This document shows, in pieces, positions 9,434 to 28,370 of a DNA stretch of 43,373 bases. Source of the DNA: Candidatus Aenigmatarchaeota archaeon (GTDB taxonomy: Archaea; Aenigmatarchaeota; Aenigmatarchaeia; CG10238-14; SCSR01); the NCBI GenBank assembly GCA_030018055.1, contig JASEGN010000002.1, positions 1-43,373 on the forward strand. Reading direction: 5' to 3'. Below the pieces are notes generated by a model. The model was given only the letters and a program-made list of their open reading frames with translations. It was not told the origin of the DNA and made no database searches. The first letter of the stretch is position 1. Every line of letters starts with the position of its first letter. A program made the position numbers and the translations under genes.

Positions 9434-9619
9434 ATGCCGAAACCAAAAAAATGGAAAGGAAAGATAAAAAAGAAGAGAGGGAAATTAGCTTGCCCCAAAT
9501 GCCTTTCTACAGATTTTGAGATTTTAGGCGAGGAATTTACTACAATGGCCAAATATCCTTTCTTACTCAGAATAAAATGTAAAAAATGTGGTTACGAAGG
9601 AGAAGCCATTAAGATTTAG
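9434..9619 (+). CDS. small lysine-rich zinc-ribbon protein
   Basis: 61-aa ORF with CPKC...CKKC (two CxxC pairs) and a basic N-terminus. Confidence 0.5.
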   Translation: MPKPKKWKGKIKKKRGKLACPKCLSTDFEILGEEFTTMAKYPFLLRIKCKKCGYEGEAIKI

Positions 9620-11890
9620 AACTCTGCTTTTGGTATTTCCTCTGGTAATCCCTTTCTTTTTCTTATAGCTTTTGTTACAGACTCAAATAATTCTTTTGGT
9701 AACCTTTCAAAAGTTGTCTCAATTAAAGAGTAGAATCCTCTACCAGATGTTGACGATTTCAACGAAGCATCAAAACCAAATAAATCAGCTACAGGAATTT
9801 TTGCAGTTATTATACTTGCTCCCCTTTCTTCTCTCATAGCAAGAATTTGCCCTCTTCTTCCTTCCACTTCTCTTATAGCTTCTCCCATAAGCTCAGTAGG
9901 CACATCTATTCTAATTGTTTGTTTTGGCTCTAGCAAAGCTATGCTCATCAACATACCTTGCCTTATAGCATATCTTGTAGCTGGCATTATCTGTCCCGGG
10001 CCTCTATGCACAGGGTCTTCATGTAGTTTAGCATCAGCAATTGTGACTTTTACTCTTGTACATGGTTCTTTGGCTAAAGGTCCTTCATCCATTAAATTGG
10101 AAAAGGCATCTTTGACCATTTCAATAATTTCATTCATAAATTGCACTCCTTTGGTTAAATCAATTAGAACATTTCTATTGTGTATTAAGATGACATTTTT
10201 TGCAATATCGTATGGTATTCCGGCCTCTGAAATTTTCCTAAATATATGAATGTGTTTGGGTCTCAGCTCCATTTCACTTGGTATTTCACCCTCTAGCATT
10301 TTTTTATAAACACTATCCTCTAATGGCTCAACAATTATGTAAAGCTTATTATGTTTGTTTGGAGATTTACCCTCTATCTCAGGTGATTTCGCAACTATAG
10401 TTTCTCTATAAACAACAATAGGTGGCGACATCTCAACCTCAAGCCCAATCTGTCTTAATTTATTCTCAACCTTTGCCTCAAGATGAAGCTCTCCAAGGCC
10501 TGAGACTAAGTATTCTCCAGTTTCGGGGTTAATTTTTACTTGTAGAGTAGTATCTTCTCTTCCAATCTGTTTCAAAGAGTCTACTACTCTTGGTAGCTCC
10601 ATTGGGTTTTTAGCCTCTACCGACTTTGTAACAACAGGCTCGAACAAATGTCTAATCTCCTCAAAAGGCTCAACCAGAGCATCTGGTTCACAAACAGTTT
10701 CACCAGTAAAAGCCTCTGGAATGCCGACTATAGCTGCAATATTTCCCGCAGTAATTTCATCAATAGGTATGCGTAGAATTCCTTTGTATACAGCAACTTG
10801 TTGGATTCTTTTTTTCACTCTTTGGCCAATTAAATACACTTCATCTCCCCTTGAAATTTTACCAGAAAATAGCCTCCCAGTAGCAACAAAACCAACATGA
10901 GGATCAGGAACCATTTTTGTTATTATTATTACAGTTTTTCCATTTGCATCGCAAGCAAGCATCTGTTGCCCAATCTCCGATTCTAAATCACCACGCCAAA
11001 TCCTACTTAGCCTATATTTCTGTGCTTCCAAAGGATTTGGAAGATGCTTTATTATCATATCTAAAACAACTTGGTGTAATGGAGCTATTTTTGCCAGTTC
11101 ATCCTCTTTATCTTCCATGGTCAAATCGATTATTTGCTTAAAAGTTATCCCAGTCTTTTTCATATAAGGGATTGAGATCGCCCATCTCTTTAAAGCAGAA
11201 CCAAAAGCTACACTACCCTCTGCTACAGAAACAAGCCATTTATTTTTATATTCCTCTTCAGCATATTTTTGGATTAAAATATTTACATCAGCGATTATTC
11301 TTTCAAATCTTTGTTGTAGCTCTTCTGGAGTTAGCTTTAGTTGTTTAATGCATTTATCAACTTTATTAACAAACAAAACTGGCTTTACCCTTTCTCTTAG
11401 TGCCTGACGAAAAACAGTCTCGGTTTGCGGCATGATCGATTCAACCGCATCTATCAAAACAATTGTTCCATCTACAGCGCGCATTGCCCTGGTAACATCT
11501 CCACCAAAATCTACGTGACCAGGAGTGTCAACTAAGTTAATTAAATAATCTTCTCCCTCGTACTCATGAACCATTGAAACGTTAGCACCATAGATGGTTA
11601 GCTGACGTCTACGTTCTTGTTAATGTCCAGAAAGGCTTACCTTTCTAGAATTCATCAAACCAAGTGTACATCACTTTTCCGGCCATTTCTTCAGCTATCA
11701 TGCATGCGCTGGTTTTTAATGACCATCTGCGCCACTCATCAAGTTATCAGTCAATGTCGTCTTTTCATGCACATAAGCTATTACACCTATGCGATCCATG
11801 ATGAACATGACTGCTTGTGGCTACATTGCGAATTCTAGTAGGGTTTCTCATGACTTCTTTAATTCTTTCTATCATCTCTCTCTTCGGCAT
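9616..11890 (-). CDS. fusA: translation elongation factor 2 (aEF-2); CDS = join of exons 11890-11795, 11763-11727, 11703-11651, 11619-9616 after removal of three BHB introns
   Basis: The ORF track gives only 9616..11574 (MVHEYEGEDYLINLVDTPGHVDF.., NKVD, diphthamide-region HRGPGQI). Upstream there is an SD plus an ATG at 11890 that opens MPKREMIERIKEVMRNPTRIRN. The spliced product totals 2190 nt (729 aa plus stop). It carries ..[24 protein letters not shown]...[25 protein letters not shown]. Confidence 0.85.
11620..11650 (-). other. aEF-2 mRNA intron 3 (31 nt, BHB)
   Basis: Outer helix UUU/AAG. Central helix GAUG/CAUU (3 WC plus 1 G-U). Bulges are AAU and AAC. The inner helix is 10 bp (UCUAGAAAGG/CCUUUCUGGA) with a UAAG loop. 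Splicing joins GAU GAA|CAA GAA to give FDE|QER. Confidence 0.8.
11704..11726 (-). other. aEF-2 mRNA intron 2 (23 nt, BHB)
   Basis: Outer helix GUG/CAU. Central helix GCGC/GCGC (4 bp). Bulges are AGA and AUG. The inner helix is UGGU/ACCA with an 8-nt loop. Splicing joins GCA G|GC AUG AUA to give GAGMI. Confidence 0.8.
11764..11794 (-). other. aEF-2 mRNA intron 1 (31 nt, BHB)
   Basis: Central helix CAUG/CAUG (4 bp). Bulges are GAU and AAA. The inner helix is 8 bp (CGCAUAGG/CUUAUGUG, including 2 G-U) with an 8-nt loop. The outer helix is weak (1 bp). Splicing joins ..CAU GGA|AAG ACG.. to give HG|KTT. Confidence 0.75.
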
Positions 11891-11906: not shown

Positions 11907-12074
11907 TTAAATTTTTAGATTCCAAACTTTATAAGTTCCCTCCTTTCTAGAAGAAATTACATTCCATCTTTCCAATGTATTTAGACAATTAATAATTGTC
12001 GTTAGAGATTTTCCAAATTTTTTTGATAATTGTTTAGTGCTAATGGATTTGTTATTTTTGATTTCGTTTATCAT
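11907..12074 (-). CDS. small winged-helix/HTH protein (55 aa, below ORF-track cutoff)
   Basis: My own translation gives MINEIKNNKSISTKQLSKKFGKSLTTIINCLNTLERWNVISSRKEGTYKVWNLKI. This is an HTH followed by a beta-wing pattern. The stop lies 17 nt before the aEF-2 start. Confidence 0.55.
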   Translation of the reverse strand: MINEIKNNKSISTKQLSKKFGKSLTTIINCLNTLERWNVISSRKEGTYKVWNLKI

Positions 12075-12161: not shown

Positions 12162-12404
12162 TCAACTTCTTTTCAGTCTTATTATGATATTACCACCTCT
12201 TTCAGAGGGTAGCATTTCTACTATTTCTATTTTTTCCCCAGGGTACCCATGTTTTTTAGTAGTCACATACTTATATACAGTAGCTCTGGGTTCTTTTATT
12301 ATTCTTGCTAATTTATTAATCCATATTCCCTTTGGGTGTTTAGATAGCTCTTTCAATATTTTTTCAACTAATTTCAGTCTTTTCGGTCCCTTAACTCCTA
12401 CCAT
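12162..12404 (-). CDS. small winged-helix DNA-binding protein
   Basis: 80-aa ORF. ..GIWINKLARIIKEPRATVYKYV.. is an HTH-like segment followed by a wing. Confidence 0.55.
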   Translation of the reverse strand: MVGVKGPKRLKLVEKILKELSKHPKGIWINKLARIIKEPRATVYKYVTTKKHGYPGEKIEIVEMLPSERGGNIIIRLKRS

Positions 12405-12554: not shown

Positions 12555-13166
12555 TTATCTAGCTCCCTCAGCTTCCTTCTCTATTCTCTCACGTTCTTTT
12601 ATAGCTTCTGATTTACTAGCATCGTTATTATAAGCAGCAATAATTTCCTGTGCCAAAGTTTCTACCATTCTTTCCCTCTTTCCAAAAGCCTTTCTATAAG
12701 CAGCCTGAACTATATTCCTCAAAGCTATATCAACCCTTCTCTGCGGAGAGGTAATTACAGCTCTCCTGACAATAATTCCTCCGACCTGATACCCTGCTAT
12801 CTCTTCGCGAAGAGCAGCATTTTCTATGGCTCTAACTAAAACTTCAATCGGATTCTTGGTAGTTTTTTTCTCAATATTTTCAAATGCGCCTTTTACAATT
12901 TTGTAATGAATTTGTAGTTTTCCAACTGCTCTACCTGAAGTTAGAACATGTTTTTTCCCTCTATGTCCAGGAATTTGTAATTTATTTATCAACCTCTCTA
13001 CTATATGCATCTTCGACTTGTAAAATTGTTGTTGGCTATATTTGCCAGTAGTTTTTGGTAATATTATAGGTTGAAGATTAACATATCTTACAAGACCAGG
13101 GTCTCTTACTTCAACTCCCTCGCTCGACCATTTTCCAAAAATTTTTATTTCAACCATTCTTAACAT
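12555..13166 (-). CDS. rps7: 30S ribosomal protein uS7
   Basis: 203-aa ORF with a typical archaeal S7 sequence (..NPIEVLVRAIENAALREE..). It follows uS12 in the conserved str-operon order. Confidence 0.9.
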   Translation of the reverse strand: MLRMVEIKIFGKWSSEGVEVRDPGLVRYVNLQPIILPKTTGKYSQQQFYKSKMHIVERLINKLQIPGHRGKKHVLTSGRAVGKLQIHYKIVKGAFENIEKKTTKNPIEVLVRAIENAALREEIAGYQVGGIIVRRAVITSPQRRVDIALRNIVQAAYRKAFGKRERMVETLAQEIIAAYNNDASKSEAIKERERIEKEAEGAR

Positions 13167-13224: not shown

Positions 13225-13644
13225 TCATCTTGCAGGCTTTTGTTTTTTACCAGTTAAAATTTCACTAAGTGCAACCCCATTTACAGCCACAACCTTATAT
13301 TTAATGCCCCACATGCTGCCCTTTGGTCCTGCCTGAGATCCACCTATCCTTTCGATTATCACCTCATCATGTTCATCTATCTTATCAATTGCTGCTTCCC
13401 CAGGCACATGAGCAGTAACTTGCACATTATTTTTTATAAGCTGAACTCTCACAGCTTTAACTAACCCAGAACAAGGCTTTCTTTGCTCTACACCTTTTTT
13501 ATACAGAACAATACCTCTAGCTTGGGGAGCACCCTCTAGTGGATCCTTTCTCCAGAGTTTCAACACTTTATACTTATGTTCAAACTTTGCCCATCTAAAC
13601 TTTTTCCTAGCCTTTCTTAATTTTCTTGCACCAAATTCACCCAT
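13225..13644 (-). CDS. rps12: 30S ribosomal protein uS12
   Basis: 139-aa ORF. ..[31 protein letters not shown].. is typical of S12. Confidence 0.9.
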
Positions 13645-13648
13645 TCAA

Positions 13649-14059
13649 TCACCTTATAACCAAATCTTTAATACCAAAGTTCCTTTTAAATATCTTTTTT
13701 AATAAATTTAAATTTTTCCTTTCCCTACCAATTACAATACCCCTATGTTTTTTATCAACCCAAACCTCCAATTTATCGCCCATTAAATCTATTCTATTTG
13801 CTTGTGGAATAACCCCTCTGGTAAATACGGTGATATCTGGAGAGAATTCAAATAACTTTATGTTCTTTTTTACAATTTTCTCTACAGTTTTTATATTTTT
13901 TCCATTTTTCCCTATAGCAATGCCAAGTTTGCCCTCCTCAACTATCATATAAATTGTGTTACCGCCCTCATCAATTATACAATCTTTAATTAAACTTCCT
14001 GTGAAGCTTTCAAAGAGTGTTATGAGTTTAATTGCTTCTTCATCAAATTTTACGTCCAT
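13649..14059 (-). CDS. nusA: archaeal NusA-like KH-domain transcription factor
   Basis: 136-aa ORF with two KH-like GxxG motifs (IGKNGKNI, IGRERKNL). It holds the conserved position between eL30 and uS12. Confidence 0.8.
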   Translation of the reverse strand: MDVKFDEEAIKLITLFESFTGSLIKDCIIDEGGNTIYMIVEEGKLGIAIGKNGKNIKTVEKIVKKNIKLFEFSPDITVFTRGVIPQANRIDLMGDKLEVWVDKKHRGIVIGRERKNLNLLKKIFKRNFGIKDLVIR

Positions 14060-14060
14060 G

Positions 14061-14324
14061 CTACTCTTCTATAACCAGAGTTGATATGGGGAATGGTTTA
14101 CCGCAGGTAACTCCTAATTCCTTGCTAGTTCCTTTAAAAATCTCCACCTTTAAATTAAAAATTTTCGCATTATGCTCAATTTGTTTACGCATAGGTTCTG
14201 GAATATTTTCTGCTATAACAATAAATTTTGGTTTACCACTTTTTATAAACTTAATCGATTGCTTGTACCCAAAGGTGATTTTATTTGACTTAATTGCATC
14301 AAGGATAATTTCTGTTAAACTCAT
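14061..14324 (-). CDS. rpl30e: 50S ribosomal protein eL30
   Basis: 87-aa ORF of the L7Ae/L30e fold type, in the conserved position after rpoA''. Confidence 0.75.
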   Translation of the reverse strand: MSLTEIILDAIKSNKITFGYKQSIKFIKSGKPKFIVIAENIPEPMRKQIEHNAKIFNLKVEIFKGTSKELGVTCGKPFPISTLVIEE

Positions 14325-16867
14325 TCGCTTTCTTCCCCAATTTTAGCTATAAGCTCGAACATCCCTGTTCCAGCAGGAACAACATGCCCAATTAAAACAT
14401 TCTCAAAAATTCCTCTGAACCTTTCAACCTCATTTTTTACAGAAGCTTTAACCAAATGTTTTATAGTCTCTTCAAAAGCAGCCCTAGCTAAAACAGATGT
14501 TTTAGTCCCAGCAATACCATATCTTCCAATTGGTCTTATTTTGCCAGAAAATGTCATAATATCTGCAACCAGAGCTATGTGCCTCATATCCACCTCTAAC
14601 CCCTGCTCGTTCAGAGTTTTCATAACCTCCCTAATTATGAGTTCTCTTGCAGCCTCTATCCCAAGTACTTCTACCACTTCATGTATGTTGGTTGTAATTG
14701 TTTTTGTTGGATCTACTTCTCTTATTTTCAAAACTTCTTTTAAGTTTGAACCCATCGTTATTATTACCAGTCTCCTTTCTTCCCGCCTAACTATGGCATT
14801 TTTAATACCTTTAATTGGATTTATGCTAAGACTCAGAACAGTCTCTTTTAACTTTTCCAAAGCTCTAATATCAACTTTAGTTTTAGGTAAAATTATTATA
14901 TTTCCTCCTTTCTTCCTTATGTCTACGTTTTTTAATTTTCCTTTTGCTACCGCAATAATTTTTTTTGCAACTCCTCTATCTAATGGTTCAATTTCTACAT
15001 AACCCTTATCGAGGTTTAAAGAAACTGTTTTTATCACACTTGCAACAGCTTTTTCAATAATTTCTTCAGCAACTCTTCTTGCTGTTTCCTCACTGTCGTA
15101 TTTTCTCTTTAAATAAATTGTCATCTCAGGATTTTCGGGTGTCTTTTTTGCATCGAAAATCTCTATGAGCCTTGGTAGCCCGTAAGTTACCTTTATACCA
15201 GCTGTTCCAGCAATATGGTAGGTACGCATAGTATTATGGGTTACTATCCCATCGAATGTAACAAACGTTTCTAAATCATCGACCGATACGTCATACACAT
15301 ACTCTCCATTATACTCAATATGAGAAATTTCTTCTATTTTATCCCAAACAACATCTGAATCTAGAGCTTGCTTTAATATGTTAATCTCCATAGAAATATC
15401 TATCTTTTTTTTCTCGGCAATTTGTCCAAACTTATCAAGATATTTTCTGAGAGTTTCTCTTCCTATCCTCTGTCTTTTAGTAAAATTGTTTACATATCTT
15501 GTTGGAAATTTTAACTTTTTAGATATTACGAATAATAGATTACCGATTCCGGGTACCATGTCTGTATACTCACGAACCTTTCTCAGATTTTTGTACTTTT
15601 CACTTAATTCTTTTAATAACATTTTTCGTTCGTTTAGAGAAGTTCCTATTTTCTCAAGAAACCTGGAAGCATACTTATATGATATATACAATTGATGTCT
15701 ATCATTGGATTTACTACAAAATATACCAAACCTAGTTAATAGAAGCGCAATACCATCTATTAGTTCTTCTGATTTAGAAGAAGCTCGTATGCTCCTTCTA
15801 TCTAAAGTTATATTACCGTCGCCATCAAAGTACGCTTGAAGTATGGCACTTACGAATTCTTCTTTAGCACTAAATGCAAACGACGGCACTTTTTTGTTTT
15901 CTGAATTAGCACCACATGTTATCTTTAGAAAGTTCGAAAGTAATGATGAATTTATACGAAGATCATGGCCTTTTGAAAAACCTCTAAGATTATCATACTC
16001 GTTTATTGTAAGTTGGAAATATTTTGCAAATTTTCTAAGGTTCAGATTAAAATCTTCATTAGTATTGGAGATATTTACAAAATTTTTCGTACAATTCCCT
16101 TCTGACAGATAAGCTCCAATCAACCATCCAAACAAAGAATCCAACTTTAATGTATCTGGCAAACTTTTACTATGCACCACATAAGGATATACATCCCCAC
16201 CTATTTTAACTAGACTTTTGGATGGAAGCAACGAACTTATTTTTATTTCAGACAAACAATTCTCTGGCAATAATTTCATTACAGGTATCCTATCTCCAAT
16301 TTTTAATTGCTTACCACTTACAGGAATAACTTTATTATCCAACCTAAGTACAAAGGAATGGTGATCGGTTGCTATCACTCTTCTTCCACTTGCAGTCTTT
16401 ATTCTCAGCAGTTTTTTAGGAGATTTATGTCTAATCACCGATTTTATTCTTTTTAATTTTAATTTTTCATCGTGATCTAAGCTGTAAACATAAAAGTTGA
16501 CATTCTTTGGAAGGTCTAATATTTCACTGCCATTTTGTTTAACATAACCAAATTTTTTTATTAACCCATCAACAAATCTACCAATTTCTATAGGCTCTAT
16601 TTTTTCATCGCTTTTAATTAGTATTTTTTCCTCGTAACCAAGGCTCATCTGGGTGGATGGTTCGGAAATAGATTGAGCGGTAATTATACCCATCGCTTCT
16701 CCGGGTTCAAATCTACTCATCAGGTAAACTTTCTTTACAGCTTCCCTTAGCTTCTCCACCTGTGCCTCACTTAACTTCATTTTTTCAGCTACCTTAAGAA
16801 TTTCTTCATTAATTTTTTCTGGTAACTCAATTTTATCCAAAAATCTTTCTTGCGATCCCTTCGACAT
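14321..16867 (-). CDS. rpoA2: DNA-directed RNA polymerase subunit A'' (exteins 74 + 303 aa) carrying a 471-aa intein
   Basis: 848-aa ORF. The exteins ..ITAQSISEPSTQM | TMRTYHIAGTAG.. rebuild the conserved A'' motif (S-EP-TQMT-RT-H-AG). The C-extein ends ..VPAGTGMFEL. Confidence 0.9.
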   Translation of the reverse strand: MSKGSQERFLDKIELPEKINEEILKVAEKMKLSEAQVEKLREAVKKVYLMSRFEPGEAMGIITAQSISEPSTQMSLGYEEKILIKSDEKIEPIEIGRFVDGLIKKFGYVKQNGSEILDLPKNVNFYVYSLDHDEKLKLKRIKSVIRHKSPKKLLRIKTASGRRVIATDHHSFVLRLDNKVIPVSGKQLKIGDRIPVMKLLPENCLSEIKISSLLPSKSLVKIGGDVYPYVVHSKSLPDTLKLDSLFGWLIGAYLSEGNCTKNFVNISNTNEDFNLNLRKFAKYFQLTINEYDNLRGFSKGHDLRINSSLLSNFLKITCGANSENKKVPSFAFSAKEEFVSAILQAYFDGDGNITLDRRSIRASSKSEELIDGIALLLTRFGIFCSKSNDRHQLYISYKYASRFLEKIGTSLNERKMLLKELSEKYKNLRKVREYTDMVPGIGNLLFVISKKLKFPTRYVNNFTKRQRIGRETLRKYLDKFGQIAEKKKIDISMEINILKQALDSDVVWDKIEEISHIEYNGEYVYDVSVDDLETFVTFDGIVTHNTMRTYHIAGTAGIKVTYGLPRLIEIFDAKKTPENPEMTIYLKRKYDSEETARRVAEEIIEKAVASVIKTVSLNLDKGYVEIEPLDRGVAKKIIAVAKGKLKNVDIRKKGGNIIILPKTKVDIRALEKLKETVLSLSINPIKGIKNAIVRREERRLVIITMGSNLKEVLKIREVDPTKTITTNIHEVVEVLGIEAARELIIREVMKTLNEQGLEVDMRHIALVADIMTFSGKIRPIGRYGIAGTKTSVLARAAFEETIKHLVKASVKNEVERFRGIFENVLIGHVVPAGTGMFELIAKIGEESE
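15233..16645 (-). mobile_element. intein with LAGLIDADG homing endonuclease in rpoA''
   Basis: It starts SLGYEEKILI (Ser1) and ends ..IVTHN, followed by +1 Thr. The LAGLIDADG motifs are WLIGAYLSEGN and ILQAYFDGDGN. Length is 1413 nt (471 aa), in frame. Confidence 0.85.
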
Positions 16868-19800
16868 TTATACCAATCTTTTCAATTTTTGAAGGGTCTA
16901 GCCCATCTATTCCGGCTAAAAATTGGATTATTCTTCCTGAAGAATCCCTTACCGTACCATCATATTCAACCTTTAAATCCTCGAGTGCTCCAACCAACCT
17001 CCTTTCCATGTAGCCCGAATGCCTTGTTTTTAATGATTTGTCCATCAAGGATTCTCTACTATTCATAGCATCAAAAAAGAATTCAAATGGATTTAGACCA
17101 TCTTTAAATCCTCTTCCCACAAATCCCTTTCCTTCTACTGACATATCGCCAATTTCAAAGTGAGGGAAAGTTCTTCCAAAATATCCTTTCTCTATTCTTT
17201 CGCCCATTATTGCCTCTTGTCCAACACAAGCAGCAGTTTGAATCACATTTACTTTTTCTCCTCTAGCACCACTCCTTACCATTGCCAATGTATAATTTTC
17301 TTTTATACTAACATCCAGCACAGCTTCAATTTCGCCTAAAACTCTGTTAAGCCTTCTCCTTATTAAAACTTCCAAACTTTCTTTCAGTGTCCTGCCTACT
17401 AAAATTTTAAGCTCTCCACTTTCAAATTTTTGGATGAGTTGATTTATATCCCTTCTAGCATTTTCTAGTATATCTTTTATTTTGGTTTTAGCTTGAGCTG
17501 GAATATCTTGATCAGAGATGCTTATGGAAAACCCATTTTTCATGAGATAAGCTATGGAAAGTCTTGAAATATCAAACAAGAATTTTTTCATAACCTGTGG
17601 CCCATAGGTATTTTCCATCTTGTCTAATATTTTCCCACTCTCAGCTCCAATACCAACCTTATCTATGTAACCACGCTTCAATTCACCATTTTCAATCACA
17701 ACAATTTCGCCAGCTTTCGATTTATACTCGATTGAAAAATCTTTGGGAAGAAACAAACTGAAAACTTCTCCCCCACTCAGAAACTTTTTGGATGGTATTT
17801 CTATGTTTGGATCTATAGATCTAATCAATTGTACAAACTCTTTCCTAGGAATTTTATCTTCTCTAGTTGTAAGTAGATACAAGCCTGTAATAAAGTCTTG
17901 CCTAGCACCAATTATTGGTCCAGAAAATCTTGGACTTCTTATATTCTTTGGAACTAGCATCAAGTTAGCTGCTTCCACTCTTGCTTCTTCTGTCTGTGGC
18001 ACATGTAAATTCATTTCATCACCATCAAAGTCGGCATTGTAAGGTGGACAGGTGGTGAGATGTAATCTTAGTGTTCTGAAGGGCATCACTTTAACTGTAT
18101 GGCCCATGATGCTCATCCTATGTAAGCTAGGTTGACGATTAAAAAGTACCATATCACCATCAACAAGATGCCTTTCCACTATCCAACCAGGAGCTATCTC
18201 CTGTGCAACTTCTTCTTTGTTAGTTTCAATTATTCTTTTTCTTCTACCATCAGGTCTAACAACATAGTTTGCTCCTGGCCAACTTTCTGGTCCATTTAGA
18301 ACAATTCTTCTCAGGTTATCTATGTTTTTTTCATCAACTCTCTCTGGCAAGGTTAACTCTTTAGCTATAACTTCTGGGACACCAACTTCGTCGATGTTTA
18401 TAAGTGGGTCAGGACTTATAACTGAACGAGCAGAGAAATTTACCCTTTTCCCAGCCAAGTTGCCCCTAAACCTACCTTCCTTTGTTTTTAAACGTTGAGA
18501 AAGTGTTTTAAGTGCTCTACCTGAGCGATGTCTAGCAGGTGGAATACCAGAAAGCTCATTATCGAAATAGGTTGCGACATGATACTGAAGAAGTTCCCAA
18601 AGATCGTCTATTATAAAGTCTGGAGCTCCAAGCTCTATATTTTCTTTCAGCCTTTCATTTATCCTAACCAAATCAACAAGTTTATGGGTTAGATCATCCT
18701 CACTCCTTTCACCAGTTTCTAGCGTAATCGATGGTCTTACTGTTACTGGTGTGACTGGAAACAAGGTTAGGATAAACCATTCAGGACGCATACCTTTAAA
18801 GCCTAGAAGCTCAAGATCTTCTTCCTTTATTTTTTCAAGTCTTGACCTAATTTCAATTCGATTAAGAATTTCATCATTTTCAAAAATTGTATACGGTTTC
18901 ATGAATTTTAGCTTGCCTTGTTCAGTTTTACAATGAGGACATTTCTTTTTAACAATCTTCACAACATCTTTTAGGTGGAAAACTTTCATTTTTTTCATTT
19001 CCTTCTCTTCGATTAGCATGCCCCCACATTTTTTACAGAAGACTCTAAGTAGCATAAATACAATTTTCGAGTAATGAACATGGATTATTGGTCTCACAAG
19101 CTCAACATAACCAAAATGCCCTTGGCATTCTCCAACACTACCACCACATGTTCTACATCTTACGCCTGGATCCACAACCCCAAGTCTAGGATCCATTAAC
19201 CCACCTTCAATTGGATATCCTTCCTGGTCATACAGCTCGGTCTTTTTTATTTTTGCAGCAGCCATTTTCCTAATCATCTCTGGACTCAGAACACTAAATT
19301 CTATTCTATCAACTCCAGTGCCATCTTCCCTAACAACTATTTTTGGATAGATTAACATGCTTTTAAGTTCCTCCAGCAAAAGTTTGAAAGCATAGGACAT
19401 TTCAACATCTAAAATTTTACTCTCTCCACAGATAGGACAATATTTTCTCTTTTTTACTCTATCCTCAATTGCCAATAACCCACATGTGGTACAAAGTGGA
19501 ATTGTTGCTTTATCGGAATCAAATCTCTCTTTTAAAGCTAAGACAGCACCATGAGCTATCAAACAGTCTTTCTCCATCTCCCCAAGTCTTAAACCACCTT
19601 CTTTACTCCTACCTTCTGTTGGTTGTTTTGTTAAAAGAGTAACTGGTCCTCTAGATCTAGCGTGGATTTTGTTAGAAACAAGATGGTCTAATTTCTGATA
19701 ATAAGCACATCCTATCAGTATCTGAGCTTTAAACATTTCACCAGTTTTACCATCGTACATGGTTTCAACGCCGTTGTTTTTAAATCCAAGTTTTTCAAGT

Positions 19801-21125
19801 GCAGCTCTTATCTCTGCTTCGGGTGTGGGATTAAATGCTGGGGAATCGATATAATCACCCTTTAAAGCAGCGGCCTTTCCAGCCATCAACTCTAGCATAG
19901 TACCAATTGTTTGTCTAGATGGAATTCCATGAGGATTAAAAATTATATCAGGAACGATACCATCTTCGGTAAAAGGCATATCTTCTTGAGGAACTACCAG
20001 ACTAACAACACCCTTTTGTCCGTGCCTGGTAGCAAATTTATCACCAATTTCAGGTCTTTTTAAATCTCTTACTCTAACCTTTATTAGTTTTGTTCCATCG
20101 ATAGTTTCTGTTAAATATACTTTGTCGGCAATCCCTCTGTCCCCATGTCTTAACCTAATTGAAGTTTCTCTTATATTTTGAGTACCAGCTATAAATCTAT
20201 CCATAGTCCCAAGAAATCTAAGTGGAGAAACTCTTCCAATCAAAACATCCATTGAGCCTATCTCTGTTTCCGGATTTATAATCCCATCTTCTGGTAAATG
20301 CTTGTAAGCATCTTCACCGGCATACCCCCTTACACCTGCTGATGGAATACCAATCTTATCTTCCTGCCCACCCATGTATACCTTTTCCTCAGCTTCATAG
20401 GTTCTAAACATGGTTGACCAAAATAGTCCTCTTTGAATTGAGTTTGCGTTGATGATAATAGCATCCTCAGTGTTATAACCATCATAGCATGCAATAGCAA
20501 CAACGACATTGGTTCCACTTGCATACTTCTCGTATGGTGTTGTTTTGTGTGTATAGGTTTGGATAAGAGGCATTTGTGGGTAGATTAGAACATTCGATTT
20601 TGTATCTACACGATTCTGGTAGTTTGTTGAAAATATTCCTATAGCTTGCCCTATCATCTTTGCTCCGTAGTTTACTCTGTCTCCTCGATTGAACTCTGGA
20701 TATGGGATAAAGGAGCCAGAAAGGCCAAAGATAAGTGAGGGGTCTAACTCCAAGTGCGTATGCCGAGGTGTTATTTTATCTTTACTTATTGCAATAAGCA
20801 TATTTTCCTCTTCTTCAGCATCTAGATATTCGATCACACCCATTTTTACTAAGTCGTTAAAACTAATTTCTCCCTTTCTCAGTTTTTCAAGAAGCTCTTC
20901 AGTCAATTTTGGACTACCATTTTCTACAACAATGAGTGGTCTCCTTACTCTACCACCATCTGTTGGAATTGAAAGCATGCCCAAGTGCTTATGATAGACA
21001 ACATTTATTTGATTTGAAATAATGCCTCTTCTTCTAGCACCTCTTATCTTTTCAACTAATTCTTCTGGTTTATCTGTTGTACCAACAAACGTTCCATTAA
21101 GAAATATATCAACCAACCTTTTCAC
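16833..21125 (-). CDS. rpoB1-rpoA1: fused DNA-directed RNA polymerase subunits B' and A' in one 1430-aa ORF
   Basis: The N-terminal ~600 aa are RpoB' (GDKFATRHGQKGV, NPHGIPSRQTIG, Zn ribbon CTTCG..CPICG, MSYAFKLLLEELKSM). The ORF runs on without a stop or start codon into RpoA' (LSPEMIRKM, GGLMDPRLG, CRTCGG..CQGHFG, NADFDGDEMN). The junction is ..LIYPKIVVREDGTGVDRIEFSVLSP.. at about 19300-19345. Confidence 0.85.
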   Translation of the reverse strand: MKRLVDIFLNGTFVGTTDKPEELVEKIRGARRRGIISNQINVVYHKHLGMLSIPTDGGRVRRPLIVVENGSPKLTEELLEKLRKGEISFNDLVKMGVIEYLDAEEEENMLIAISKDKITPRHTHLELDPSLIFGLSGSFIPYPEFNRGDRVNYGAKMIGQAIGIFSTNYQNRVDTKSNVLIYPQMPLIQTYTHKTTPYEKYASGTNVVVAIACYDGYNTEDAIIINANSIQRGLFWSTMFRTYEAEEKVYMGGQEDKIGIPSAGVRGYAGEDAYKHLPEDGIINPETEIGSMDVLIGRVSPLRFLGTMDRFIAGTQNIRETSIRLRHGDRGIADKVYLTETIDGTKLIKVRVRDLKRPEIGDKFATRHGQKGVVSLVVPQEDMPFTEDGIVPDIIFNPHGIPSRQTIGTMLELMAGKAAALKGDYIDSPAFNPTPEAEIRAALEKLGFKNNGVETMYDGKTGEMFKAQILIGCAYYQKLDHLVSNKIHARSRGPVTLLTKQPTEGRSKEGGLRLGEMEKDCLIAHGAVLALKERFDSDKATIPLCTTCGLLAIEDRVKKRKYCPICGESKILDVEMSYAFKLLLEELKSMLIYPKIVVREDGTGVDRIEFSVLSPEMIRKMAAAKIKKTELYDQEGYPIEGGLMDPRLGVVDPGVRCRTCGGSVGECQGHFGYVELVRPIIHVHYSKIVFMLLRVFCKKCGGMLIEEKEMKKMKVFHLKDVVKIVKKKCPHCKTEQGKLKFMKPYTIFENDEILNRIEIRSRLEKIKEEDLELLGFKGMRPEWFILTLFPVTPVTVRPSITLETGERSEDDLTHKLVDLVRINERLKENIELGAPDFIIDDLWELLQYHVATYFDNELSGIPPARHRSGRALKTLSQRLKTKEGRFRGNLAGKRVNFSARSVISPDPLINIDEVGVPEVIAKELTLPERVDEKNIDNLRRIVLNGPESWPGANYVVRPDGRRKRIIETNKEEVAQEIAPGWIVERHLVDGDMVLFNRQPSLHRMSIMGHTVKVMPFRTLRLHLTTCPPYNADFDGDEMNLHVPQTEEARVEAANLMLVPKNIRSPRFSGPIIGARQDFITGLYLLTTREDKIPRKEFVQLIRSIDPNIEIPSKKFLSGGEVFSLFLPKDFSIEYKSKAGEIVVIENGELKRGYIDKVGIGAESGKILDKMENTYGPQVMKKFLFDISRLSIAYLMKNGFSISISDQDIPAQAKTKIKDILENARRDINQLIQKFESGELKILVGRTLKESLEVLIRRRLNRVLGEIEAVLDVSIKENYTLAMVRSGARGEKVNVIQTAACVGQEAIMGERIEKGYFGRTFPHFEIGDMSVEGKGFVGRGFKDGLNPFEFFFDAMNSRESLMDKSLKTRHSGYMERRLVGALEDLKVEYDGTVRDSSGRIIQFLAGIDGLDPSKIEKIGINVEGIARKIFG

Positions 21126-22611
21126 CCCTTACAATTCTTGAAACAACTTGTTGCTCTTCATCAGATACGCCTTTTGTAATTTCTGCTAGTAGTGCAAGAT
21201 ATTTTCTTAAACCAATGGTAGCACCCTCTGGTGTTTCAGAAATACATAGTTTTCCAAAATGGGTTGGATGAAGTTCTCTAGCTTCAAAATGTTCTTGAGC
21301 AGAAGTTAGAGGTGATAAAATATTTCTCATATGTGAGATTGTTTTTACAAAACTACCTCTTTCAAGTCTCTGAGATATTCCAGTCCTTCCCCCAGTCCAT
21401 GTTCCAATAGCAAGAGCTGAGATTAGTTGGTTAGTTAAAACATTGGACTCAATAATAGCCTGTAGCGGTGGTAGTCTTCCTCTCTTTGTAAGTTTCTGAT
21501 AATTATAGCTTATCCTTGGTATGAGACCATACTTTCCAAGTAATATAGATCTAAGTTGAATTTCAAGTAAATCGCCTGCTAACTTCAGCCTTTTGTTAGC
21601 ATAATGGTCTAAATCATCCTCCTCAATTTTGCCCAGATGTAGCTTTATTAGCTTCTCTATAGCTTTTGATAAGAAAATTGCTTTTTTAGTTCTATCTTCC
21701 GGATTTTGGCCGAGATGTGGTAGGAAATACGTGTCTATAATTCTACATGCTCTCTCAATTCTTTGTGCTTTTGGCAGCGCTCTTAGGTATTTACCAGTAA
21801 TTGCATCCAGAGCTTCATCTTGAGTTGTTATTTCCGATTCTAATAAATTAATATAAAATTCATCTTGGATGGTGGGATCTGGGGAAATTGTTGTTATGAT
21901 TTCTTTATCACTTTCAAGACCTAAAGCTTTCAAAAGAGTAACTATTGATAATTGTAGCACGTTTGCAAATGATATAGTTATAACACCATTTTTTCTTCTT
22001 TCCATCAGATGCCTTTGAACGTAGCCATCTTTCTCAGAATGAATCCTAGCTATTTCCGTTACATTGCCGCTATCGACCTTTTTAACTAAAATATGATTTT
22101 GGACAATTTCCTCAACTAAAACCAAAATTCTTTCCGTACCATTGATTATGAAATATCCGCCAGGATCATCAGGATCCTCACCAACTTCTAGTAATTGGGC
22201 TTTACTCATAGTAGATAAAGGACAAATCTTAGATTTTACCATTATTGGTAATTCACCAAAGTTAATCCACTGGGGCTCGCCTTCAACTTTATTAAGTACA
22301 GGCGTTATTTCAACCCACATAGTTGTGGAATAGGTTAGGTTTCTTATTCTTGCTTCTTGAGGTAGGATTTGTCTTTCTGAACCATCTGCTTCCATTATCC
22401 ACGGTGCCCAACCTTCCTTCCCAACCCTAAATCTACCAATTTTTAACTTAAGGTCACCAATCGCTGGAACTTTCGGTTCTACTGTTCCGATTCCTTTCAA
22501 AATTTTTGGAATTCTTCTAATTACAAAATCATTGTAGGAATCTATCTGATGTTTAACTAAGCTATTCTCCTTCAAATAGCTGTTTAACAAGCTAATGAGA
22601 ATTTCATTCAC
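21109..22611 (-). CDS. rpoB2: DNA-directed RNA polymerase subunit B'' (N-terminal half of split B)
   Basis: 500-aa ORF with typical RpoB N-terminal sequence (..DSYNDFV.., ..[14 protein letters not shown]..). It overlaps the next ORF by 17 nt. Confidence 0.9.
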
Positions 22612-22841
22612 GCTCTTACCACAACCCTATAATAAATACTTTCACCGACAATTGAACTTTTTCTTATTATTTTTATTACATCACCTGGCTTTGCACCCAG
22701 CAGCTTTACTATAGGATCGTTGGCTAAAATTCTTGGTAATTGTTTAAGGGTGACTCTATATCTTTTCATTACCTCCTCTTTCTCCTCCTCATTCAAAATT
22801 ATGTGCTTTGGTACTAACACATGGTCCAATTCTTCCATCAT
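22608..22841 (-). CDS. rpoH: DNA-directed RNA polymerase subunit H (Rpb5-like)
   Basis: 77-aa ORF. ..[39 protein letters not shown].. is typical of RpoH. Confidence 0.9.
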
Positions 22842-24990: not shown

Positions 24991-25746
24991 ATGATAGATT
25001 CTCATTGTCACCTAGAACAAAGGGACTTTGACAAAGATAGAGATGAGATAATAGAGAAATCTAAGAAAGAATTAAAAGCTGTAATTACATGCTGCGCTCA
25101 TCCTAAGGATTTCAACTTAACGATGCAAATGGTTGAAAAAAATAAAGGATTTATCTTTGCCACAGTTAGTATTCATCCTTTATATATAAAAGAAATTACT
25201 GAGAGAGAAAAGGATGAGTTTTTAGATTTAATTAGAAAAAATAAGGATAGAATAACTGCATTAGGTGAGCAAGGTCTTGATTATTTCGAAATAAAAGAAA
25301 GTAAATGGCGACAAAAACAAAAGGAACTTTTTATTGAATTTATTAATTTGTCGAAGGAATTGAATCTCCCTCTAGTAGTTCATGCTAGAGACGCTTTTGA
25401 AGATGCAATAAAAATCTTAGAGCAACAAGATGCAAAAAATGTTTTGATGCATATGTTTGGTGCATATCATTTATTAAAACGTGTGATAGAAAATAATTGG
25501 TTTATTTCTCTCAACACAATAATTTTGCGAAGCAAAAAACATAAAAAAATTACAAGAGACGTACCCTTAGAAAAATTATTAACAGAAACCGATTCACCTT
25601 GGCTAGACCCTGCAGGAGGTAGAAACACTCCTCTAAATGTAAAAATAGTAATAGAAAAAATATCCGAAATAAAAAAGATGCCTCAGAATCAAGTTGATGA
25701 GATAACAACACAAAATGCGATAAGGTTTTTTAATTTACATCTTTAG
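24991..25746 (+). CDS. tatD: TatD-family metal-dependent hydrolase/DNase
   Basis: 251-aa ORF with MIDSHCHL.., ..VVHARDA.. and ..TETDSPWL.. motifs. Confidence 0.85.
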
Positions 25747-28370
25747 CTTAACTTATATCTTAAGAAAGCTCCAATTCCACCCAATTCCTTAAATTGAACA
25801 CCTTCCCTTGTATCTGTGGATACAAATTCGATTCTTGTTCCGAATTTTTTAGCTGTTTCTATGAATTCATCAACCAACTCTTTAATCTCTTTCACAGCCA
25901 TTTTCTCACCACATCTTTCACAAATTTGCTCATAAGCTAAACTCATTCCAACTTTCATTTTCTTCTCTCCACATTTACATGCAAGCCTTACTTCAACGAC
26001 ATCCAATGCATCTGAAATTAGCAGGGTATCAACAGCTCCAGCATTAAGCGCATTGACAACATCATCAATTTTATATGATACCTTCCCACCTATTTGTATT
26101 TCTCGAAGGAAATTTCCGAGTAGCCCTTTTTCTTTTGCTATAGATGCTTCTTTTAATAAATCTTGAGCTCTACCAACGAGTTCCTCTAAACCATATTCAC
26201 CTGTATAGCTGGTATCCTTTAAGCCAAGCACCTTATTCTTTATTTGGTAATGTAGGTAATCTTCCTTGAGAAGAAGTTCTTTTATATAACCTGGACCACC
26301 GATAATAACCCACTTGAGTTCCTTTTGCTCTAAAAACAGTTTCGACGCAATTTCTCCAACCTTTGTTAAAAATTCGTGGATGGCATCCTCTCTAATTCTA
26401 TCATAACGTTTTTGTGAATTATGCACTAATATACCATTAATGAAGAAAGAATAATAGTCCGGAATGTAAAGGTCGTAAAAAATTCCAGTTGGTTTGATCT
26501 TTCTTCTTTCTTTTACTACAACTTGAATTAACTGTGAATTCAAAATTTTAAGAAGTTCACGTAAAACAGTTTCGCTATCTTTTGTCAATTTTCGCTTTCT
26601 TTCGAGTAAAAATTTCAAAACTTCTTCTCTCAACTCATTTTTAATATTCTTTCGCTCCAATTTCCAAATTGTATACACTGAAGCTCCAACAGCTTGTGTA
26701 ACATCTTTTTGTCTCAATCTTAGGAGTTTTCGTAGATATTTAATATTACTTCCATTCTTCTTCAAAGAGTTGATTCTTTTAATAAGAGGGAGAATTATTC
26801 TTTTGTAGAAAACAGGATAACTCATATTTCGTGTATCAGTAAAAAAATTAGAAACTTTTGTGAAATATTGCTTATTCAAATTAATACTTTCTATTTTTTT
26901 TCGCACTAAACTTCCAAGGATAGGGACTTTATCCACATGAAAGATGTAATTTCTTTCAGCTACGAACTTTCTTAATCTTAATTTTTTATTTTTTGAACTA
27001 AAATTAATTTTTTTCCAAAATTCTCTAGTATAAAATGGATTTGTTATCTGCAAGTTATATCTCCCAAATTTATCCGCTTCACTTATACTAGAAACTATAC
27101 CTAACTTTAATAACAGTAGCTGCAAAGTGCATATTATATTTTCATTAGAAAGTCTTATACAAATCTTTCCTTGAGAAATGTAACCTTCAGCATCAAAAAG
27201 ACCTCTTAGAAAGTAGCATAGCCATTTTCCAGATAATTTTGTTAGATTTATTGGTATTTTTCTATCTTTTCTTGTACCTAACAATCCTTGGAAGTTTTGT
27301 AAAACAAATCTAACAACTTTGATATCATAAACTCTAATCTCATAAGTATTCTTTTTTTTCAAAATTCTCGGTTTTTTCCTTAGATTTTTTTCAATCAACT
27401 TGCTGTAAAAAGATGCCAACTGAAAATCTTTCTCATAAGCAATTATTCTATTCCCATCTAAAGTTCCATCACCAAGAAGATAACCAAGAATCTGACACAT
27501 TTCTTTACTTAGAGAAGATAAATTGCATTTTATATCACTTTTCTTTAAGGCAAGTAGTCTATCACCCACTTCTAAATCCTCCACAAATTTTTCTATTATA
27601 CCATTTTCGGTCAAGACAAAAATTTTATGTTCGGGTGAAGCGATTAGCCTGAAAGTTGGTTCTTTAGTTATTATTTCATAAGCTCTTCTAACCTTTCTTT
27701 TAAATATTTCATGTGGATTGGTGAAAGTTTGTTTGAAGTTGCTAAAGGAAAAAGTTAAAACTTTATTATTTTTGTCAAGAAATTTTACTGGACAGATAGC
27801 ACCATTTTTTAGTTGGAGAAGGGATTCTTCGTGTAAACACATTCCACCTTTTACCGTCTTGCTTGGAACAGTAGACACTAAGTGCTTTAATGGCTCTATA
27901 GCTTTCCCTTTTAATAGACCTATGTTAGCTTCCCTGGTATCGAGAACAACTAAACCATAGACCTCTTTTTCCTTTATCATCTCTTCCAAGGGTTCTAGTA
28001 CGAAAACTTGATCACACCAATACATCTTTGTACTCATCCTTTCTGGAGGTTCCAAAGACCAAAGTCTTATATCGGTCTTACCTTCAACCTCAGAAACATT
28101 ACCACAAAAAACAATCAAACCATTTGCAGGAGTTTGTTTAAAGAGTTTTAAATGTGAAATAATCTTTTCAAGTGCATCCAAAACATTCTTTCTAGTTGTT
28201 TTTGATTTGATGTTTTGTGCAGTGGATTTTTCCTGGGTTAACTGGTTTATAATCTCGACTAGATTAAATCCAGCTGGAACATAAACTGAGACCAGCTCTG
28301 TGTGTCTTCCCTTAATTTTTTCCAGTTCTTTCAAAAGCTTCCTTAGCTTTAGCTTTTCCCTCTCTTCCAT
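25743..28370 (-). CDS. prf1: peptide chain release factor aRF1 (exteins 177 + 224 aa) carrying a 474-aa intein
   Basis: 875-aa ORF with the NIKS motif ([13 protein letters not shown]) and YxCxxxF (YWCDQVF). The extein junction ..[10 protein letters not shown] | [11 protein letters not shown].. lies in the GGQ loop. Confidence 0.85.
26418..27839 (-). mobile_element. intein with LAGLIDADG homing endonuclease inserted in the GGQ loop of aRF1
   Basis: It starts [13 protein letters not shown] (Cys1) and ends ..GILVHN, followed by +1 Ser. The LAGLIDADG motifs are [11 protein letters not shown] and [11 protein letters not shown]. Length is 1422 nt (474 aa). Confidence 0.85.

Follow-up and report, generated by a model that had tools for sequence, protein, structure and literature searches.

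A predicted in-frame fusion of RNA polymerase subunits B' and A' recurs across Candidatus Aenigmatarchaeota

An open reading frame spanning B' and A'

The window analyzed here is a 43,373-nucleotide (nt) stretch of DNA (contig JASEGN010000002.1 of GenBank assembly GCA_030018055.1, positions 1 to 43,373 of the forward strand), and its minus strand carries a gene in which two subunits of the archaeal RNA polymerase (RNAP), B' and A', share one open frame. The contig belongs to a metagenome bin of 0.97 Mb in 125 contigs, estimated to be 85% complete with 3.8% contamination, and the names on its homologues place the group in Candidatus Aenigmatarchaeota, a DPANN lineage. The fused rpoB'-rpoA' gene lies at 16833..21125 (-) and comprises 1430 codons plus a stop codon. 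Amino acids (aa) 1-601 (19323..21125, -) make up the B' portion, including its C-terminal zinc ribbon, and aa 603-1430 (16836..19319, -) make up the A' portion. A single match to these subunits was found in the source genome (G000), with no second, unfused copy of either rpoB' or rpoA'.

Both halves score as complete members of their archaeal families. In Pfam, Rpb2 domains 4-7 (aa 7-597) are followed directly by Rpb1 domains 1-5 (aa 605-1408). The NCBIfam model for archaeal subunit B (rpoB_arch, TIGR03670) matches aa 7-600 over model positions 1-597 of 599, with 866.1 bits against a cut-off of 811, while aa 605-1428 exceed the cut-offs of two A' models, NF006336 (1145.8 bits vs 819, covering model positions 9-877 of 883) and TIGR02390 (1128.6 bits vs 1042.55). 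In a search of solved structures, the B' part matched the C-termini of solved B subunits, and the A' part matched solved Rpo1N chains starting at their residue 6-9. The zinc ribbon CTTC...CPIC (aa 545-566) sits at the C-terminus of B' and is part of the clamp. The open frame and the Pfam domain order agree with an earlier sequence-only reading of this DNA, which had described an in-frame B'-A' fusion of 1430 aa without a stop or frame change, and the peptide that it quoted at the join, MSYAFKLLLEELKSMLIYPKIVVREDGTGVDRIEFSVLSPEMIRKM, is present in the translation.

The two subunits meet at a 12-residue linker, IVVREDGTGVDR (aa 596-607; 19305..19340, -), which lies between the conserved YPK and IEF motifs and falls within the interval 19300-19345 to which the sequence-only reading had assigned the join. 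No stop and no frame change occur in the DNA from 19150 to 19500. The closest view of what was altered comes from a relative, L007, whose two genes are separate and in the same frame: its codons GAA GTT TAA ATG AAA GTA GAT AGA are collinear with GAA GAT GGC ACT GGA GTT GAT AGA in the window, such that GGC (19320..19322) stands where the stop codon used to be and ACT (19317..19319) where the ATG was. By this comparison, the rpoB' stop and the rpoA' start both appear to have been turned into sense codons. The nearest in-frame canonical start codons encode Met589 and Met617 (19275..19277), with no in-frame ATG, GTG, or TTG between them, bearing out the earlier remark that none is available near the A' N-terminus; by inspection, no convincing Shine-Dalgarno sequence precedes Met617. 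An internal A' start in the region between aa 589 and 617 was rejected for lack of such a codon.

The linker length is similar across other fusions. Among 97 fusions from the database, the linker measures 10-12 residues, with 12 residues in 65 of them, and a Met is kept within it in 29. In unfused relatives, the B' tail contributes about 6 residues and the A' head about 5, which together match this length; with nothing added to the chain, the native termini must lie next to each other already.

We also observed that in three unfused relatives (L007, L021, and L023) the last B' codons (GTG GAG GAA, AAA GAG GAT) give a GGAGG-like or GAGG-like motif shortly before the A' ATG; to judge from these motifs, the acidic B' C-terminal tail may double as the A' ribosome-binding site in unfused relatives.

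Sequence support for the junction

As the window derives from a metagenome bin of 125 contigs and 85% completeness, and five stops or frameshifts interrupt the 5' end of the elongation factor 2 (EF-2) gene, 7.5 kb away, we considered whether an artefact of assembly or sequencing, or a chimeric consensus, had removed a real stop codon. Converting TAA ATG to GGC ACT takes at least four base changes and no indel, and, since both the stop and the start positions are now sense codons, a single miscalled base or indel would be insufficient. An exact-protein look-up found an independent Logan contig (run SRR23186779) that matches the window at 99.85% identity across 7284 nt, with 0 gaps; despite 11 mismatches (single-nucleotide differences), its junction is identical, and it codes for the same 1427-aa product, linker included. 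At the join, the nearest relative, G001 (75% protein identity), reads KEDGSGIERIEF, and two proteins from the Joint Genome Institute (JGI), P0005 and P0006, encoded on contigs of about 250 kb, read KEDGTGVDRIEF; the EDG[TS]G join is common to the window, to its sister species G001, and to these two JGI contigs. An uninterrupted frame was therefore found in a separate assembly and the junction is kept in related genomes, and, with 54 species-level genomes fused, we regard an artefact as an extremely improbable source of this gene.

Two other candidate explanations at the nucleotide level were rejected. Codon collinearity with in-frame relatives, with no indel, rules out a frameshift artefact. 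An alternative genetic code or readthrough is ruled out because there is no stop at the window junction and the in-frame stops of relatives include all three stop codons.

Distribution and lability of the fused state

Junctions in related genomes substantiate the fusion well beyond the shared join of G001. At 38 loci from relatives (L001-L038), sampled by kinship within the same family and order, the B'-A' frame is uninterrupted in 19, contains an in-frame stop followed by ATG in 3, and is replaced in the remaining 16 by two genes in different frames, mostly with ATGA-type overlaps. A phylum-wide sample of 301 genomes gave a match in 288: 54, or about a fifth, are uninterrupted at the junction (the window included), 37 have a single frame with one or more stop codons, and the remaining genomes give two separate matches. 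Most of the fused genomes (41 of 54) belong to the window's own order, where the proportion fused differs by family (15/57 in f1, 9/19 in f4, 15/17 in f5, 1/3 in f2, and 1/1 in f6), and one genus, g6, contains both fused and separate states. Searching the database with the junction alone gave 626 matches, more than 100 of which cover the junction fully. Most of the proteins that do so are 1420-1460 aa long and represent B'-A', and a second class of 1910-1935 aa corresponds to an unsplit B fused to A'. The NCBI labels for these fused proteins, hundreds of which are deposited publicly, are just "subunit A'" or "subunit B".

How often the state has changed was assessed on a maximum-likelihood tree of concatenated B'+A', with 42 rows made up of L001-L038 and four outgroups (L059-L062) picked regardless of their junction; loci L039-L058, which had been chosen from the list of single-frame matches, were left out of the count. 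The window is sister to G001 (support 100/99), and the next branch is G004, which has an in-frame TAG. Rooted on the outgroups, the tree requires at least nine changes between the fused and separate states, counted without direction (gain or loss), and at least five of these are forced by well-supported branches. In-frame-stop forms adjoin fused forms three times (L006/L007, L001-L002/L022, and L003/L021), an arrangement in keeping with a state that is toggled by single substitutions, TAA<->GAA being one example. Judged from the sequences sampled, the fusion appears widespread and repeatedly switched in Aenigmatarchaeota, and is not peculiar to the window genome.

The boundaries of these subunits vary in other ways as well. 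The split of B itself varies within the class (L059, G066:C37; L061, G060:C30; L062, G048:C2; families f18 and f16), with some genomes having an unsplit B frame of about 1090-1120 aa and a separate A' and others having A' fused to an entire B (1910-1935 aa). Aenigmatarchaeota thus include four layouts of the large subunits, namely B'' with B' and A' all separate, B'' with a fused B'-A', B with a separate A', and a fused B-A'.

Three genomes show further irregularities in these genes. At G021:C15 (L021) and G004:C21 (L022), the B' frame is broken again near the position of aa 462-475 of the window protein, giving two matches, with B' open frames of only 144 and 308 aa; the break may reflect a further split, a frameshift, or an error of assembly. 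In G045, B' and A' lie on different contigs (C9:26844-28634 and C5:30953-33322), both far from contig ends, and the two genes may be unlinked.

Structural compatibility of the join

An engineered protein provides the clearest structural counterpart. The single-chain clamp rClamp of Pyrococcus furiosus (PDB 3QQC chain A; Martinez-Rucobo et al. 2011, PMC3094117) joins B 1053-1115, A' 3-318, and A'' 334-371 by short Gly/Ala/Ser linkers, on the premise that the B C-terminal zinc ribbon and the A' N-terminal region are both parts of the clamp; the product is soluble, folds, binds Spt4/5, and was crystallized (PMC3094117). rClamp reads RPKLNLSEGGKVIGSIEF where B meets A', and this stretch aligns to the natural YPKIVVREDGTGVDRIEF with no gaps; phmmer aligned residues 10-172 of a window-protein query to residues 4-167 of the 3QQC chain as a single stretch with no gap at the join. 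In both proteins, the B C-terminus is covalently connected to the A' N-terminus through a join of equal length. Unlike the window protein, rClamp is an artificial domain construct of 436 residues that falls short of a full subunit; it additionally includes a segment of A'' and was never part of a working polymerase. A B-A' covalent join, albeit an engineered one, has thus been crystallized before.

An AlphaFold2 model of aa 440-900, built from a 39-sequence alignment, places the join in a strand (IYPKIVV), a six-residue turn (REDGTG), and a second strand (VDRIEFSV), with a predicted local distance difference test (pLDDT) score of 74-83. The top Foldseek match of this model in PDB is 3QQC_A, with a target-normalized template modelling score (TM-score) of 0.74 over 365 columns, compared with about 316 for A' chains alone. 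One chain of 3QQC therefore matches across both the B and the A' parts, gap-free at the join. By analogy with the engineered clamp, a tether lying inside one rigid body should not restrict clamp opening.

Comparison with known large-subunit fusions

The sequence-only reading had drawn a parallel with the beta-beta' fusions of bacteria, and as an analogy it holds: natural beta-beta' (rpoB-rpoC) fusions are documented in Helicobacter and Wolinella (Zakharova et al., as cited in PMC1557499). In both cases, an in-frame join links the C-terminal end of the second-largest subunit to the N-terminal end of the largest, the genes being adjacent and in the same order, and the bacterial product is reported to be a single large polypeptide. 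The fusion described here differs in belonging to another domain of life, with an independent origin, and in joining only the C-terminal half of B (B') to only the N-terminal two thirds of A, namely A'. In bacteria, the fusion has also been treated as a single, rare, family-marking event, whereas in Aenigmatarchaeota the state changes at least nine times within one order. The window protein is an analogue and not a member of the bacterial fused beta/beta' families, falling far below their thresholds (356.4 vs 5372 bits for NF007172, and 345.7 vs 4632 bits for NF011417). A synthetic Escherichia coli rpoB-rpoC fusion, cited as reference 21 in bioRxiv 10.1101/2021.11.05.467461, indicates that function is compatible with a tether between the two largest subunits, though that fusion, unlike the one in the window, is bacterial and man-made.

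Among archaea, the nearest published case is a secondary re-fusion of A' and A'' in Pacearchaeota, reported by Da Cunha et al. (2017; PMC5484517), where such events in subunit A are called rare. It likewise concerns a DPANN lineage that shifts the boundaries of its large RNAP subunits, but the Pacearchaeota event rejoins two parts of one ancestral subunit (A), whereas the window gene joins parts of two subunits (B and A). PMC5484517 makes no mention of B-A' joins. More generally, in line with the earlier statement that no archaeal B'-A' fusion is known to have been described, our full-text literature searches, the coverage of which takes in only a minority of subscription journals, found no description of an archaeal B-A' fusion, nor did targeted reading of PMC5484517, PMC6355029, PMC1586193, PMC13556214, and PMC13257274 reveal one. 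Neither "fusion" nor "split" appears in a 2026 review, inclusive of Aenigmarchaeota, on the evolution of archaeal RNAP subunits. The fusion is a real archaeal counterpart of the bacterial large-subunit fusion, widespread in the phylum and, it appears, hitherto undescribed.

Proposed mechanism and alternatives

We consider it highly probable that translation of the B'-A' gene yields one polypeptide of about 160 kDa, which is then assembled into a normal polymerase. The open frame, its conservation, the codon collinearity, and the structural compatibility of the join are observed, and from them we infer synthesis as one chain in vivo, activity of that chain, and near-neutrality of the tether. 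In this proposal, the ribosome would make one B'-A' protein because the stop of rpoB' and the start of rpoA' are now sense codons, and this protein would assemble with B'', A'', and the small subunits into an otherwise ordinary archaeal RNAP. The fusion would be tolerated because the B C-terminus and the A' N-terminus form neighboring beta-strands in the same rigid module, the clamp, where the native tails would already bridge the gap with no linker gained by fusion, and the covalent tether would leave clamp movement and catalysis unhindered. The tether would, in addition, enforce 1:1 synthesis and co-assembly of B' and A'. As fused and separate forms would be interconverted by one or few base changes and both would be functional, frequent flips of state in Aenigmatarchaeota are to be expected, and near-neutrality of the tether would likewise explain its frequent gain and loss. 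The best reading of these data is that of a tolerated, evolutionarily labile covalent tether in a rigid clamp module, convergent with the bacterial beta-beta' fusions.

Several points weigh against this interpretation. The Logan contig may come from the same reads as the bin; the bin is incomplete and carries contamination (85% and 3.8%, as given above); and local sequence quality is not above question, as the EF-2 gene on the same contig has a 5' end broken by five stops. The AlphaFold2 model is of moderate overall quality (mean pLDDT 68; predicted TM-score, pTM, 0.69), and the changes of state on the 42-row tree are counted irrespective of direction. The near-neutrality of the tether is itself deduced from the frequency of flipping. 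Finally, the fused frame might still yield two proteins, either through cleavage by a protease at an exposed REDGTG turn or through an internal A' start. The join is a six-residue surface turn in the AlphaFold2 model, the Met kept in the linker of 29 of the 97 database fusions makes an internal A' start possible in some lineages, and frequent flipping indicates that the separate state works too. In the window, however, the stretch between Met589 and Met617 offers no start codon, initiation at Met617 would remove the conserved IEFSVLSPE strand, and neither a recognizable protease site nor a self-cleaving element is present, with Pfam giving RNAP domains only. We therefore judge a two-protein outcome to be very unlikely.

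A different proposal, not mutually exclusive with a single polypeptide, is that the tether has been selected, ensuring stoichiometry or core assembly with fewer helpers in the genome-reduced, host-dependent Aenigmatarchaeota. Archaeal RNAP assembly is hierarchical and stoichiometry-sensitive in Methanococcus maripaludis (PMC13556214), the fusion is common in some families (15 of the 17 sampled genomes of f5), and linker length is tightly kept. On the other hand, the state flips at least nine times among 42 genomes, and its polymorphism within one genus argues against strong selection; unfused relatives have equally small genomes; and the ATGA overlaps of unfused relatives already couple the two genes translationally. 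An adaptive role is accordingly possible but, in our view, unlikely, and we favor a tolerated and nearly neutral single-chain tether.

Implications

On balance, we lean toward a broader conclusion, in which the subunit boundaries of the Aenigmatarchaeota catalytic core are fluid and the fused form works as one polypeptide, bypassing the normal hierarchical order of assembly, in which A is added after B has bound the Rpo3/11 platform. In that case, splits and fusions of the large subunits would not be the rare, reliable phylogenetic markers that they are assumed to be. Archaeal trees have been rooted or polarized with them as rare genomic changes (PMC5484517); in Aenigmatarchaeota, the fused or separate state flips at least nine times within one order. 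A natural archaeal tethered core would also become available for assembly and structural studies, and the fused form would offer a natural test of hierarchical, stoichiometry-sensitive assembly (PMC13556214) with two modules covalently linked. Fused genes will also be mishandled in annotation and phylogenomics wherever pipelines pull RpoB and RpoA markers out of DPANN genomes. The understanding of transcription mechanism is unchanged by the finding.

Operon context and neighboring genes

The fused gene sits in the usual archaeal operon, in the order rpoH, B'', B'-A', A'', L30e, NusA, S12, S7, all on the minus strand. The first gene, rpoH (22608..22841, -), encodes RNAP subunit H (Pfam RNA_pol_Rpb5_C, E = 2e-31). 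It is followed by rpoB'' (21109..22611, -), which encodes the N-terminal part of the split B (500 aa, Pfam Rpb2 domains 1, 2, and 3) as a separate open reading frame (ORF) in a different frame, with a 17-nt overlap with the fused gene. Downstream lies rpoA'' (14321..16867, -; 848 aa; Pfam Rpb1_5, Intein_splicing, and LAGLIDADG_3), which is interrupted by a LAGLIDADG intein of 471 aa (aa 75-545; 15233..16645, -; boundaries TQM|SLGY...THN|TMRTYH). These ORFs and domains confirm the rest of the architecture proposed in the sequence-only reading, that is, an rpoB split with B'' at 21109..22611 and an A'/A'' split with an intein, for an overall layout of B'', B'-A', and intein-containing A''. The intein is inserted in the conserved TQM|T(L/M)RT(F/Y)H motif, with boundaries S...HN|T. 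The remaining genes of the operon, identified by Pfam, encode L30e (14061..14324, -), a NusA-like KH protein (13649..14059, -), S12 (13225..13644, -), and S7 (12555..13166, -).

A second intein in an essential gene is present in the same 43-kb window, in the aRF1 release factor gene (25743..28370, -; 875 aa), which carries a LAGLIDADG intein (Intein_splicing, aa 199-651). The EF-2 gene lacks an intact 5' end: at 11575..11790 (-), upstream of the ORF 9616..11574, the region encoding the P-loop crosses five stops and several frame changes. Among the PF00009 matches of the genome there is no second EF-2 copy, and the damaged 5' end reflects either an assembly fault in this region or an essential gene that is broken or unusual. 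Between S7 and EF-2 are two short ORFs with winged-helix domains (11907..12074 and 12162..12404).

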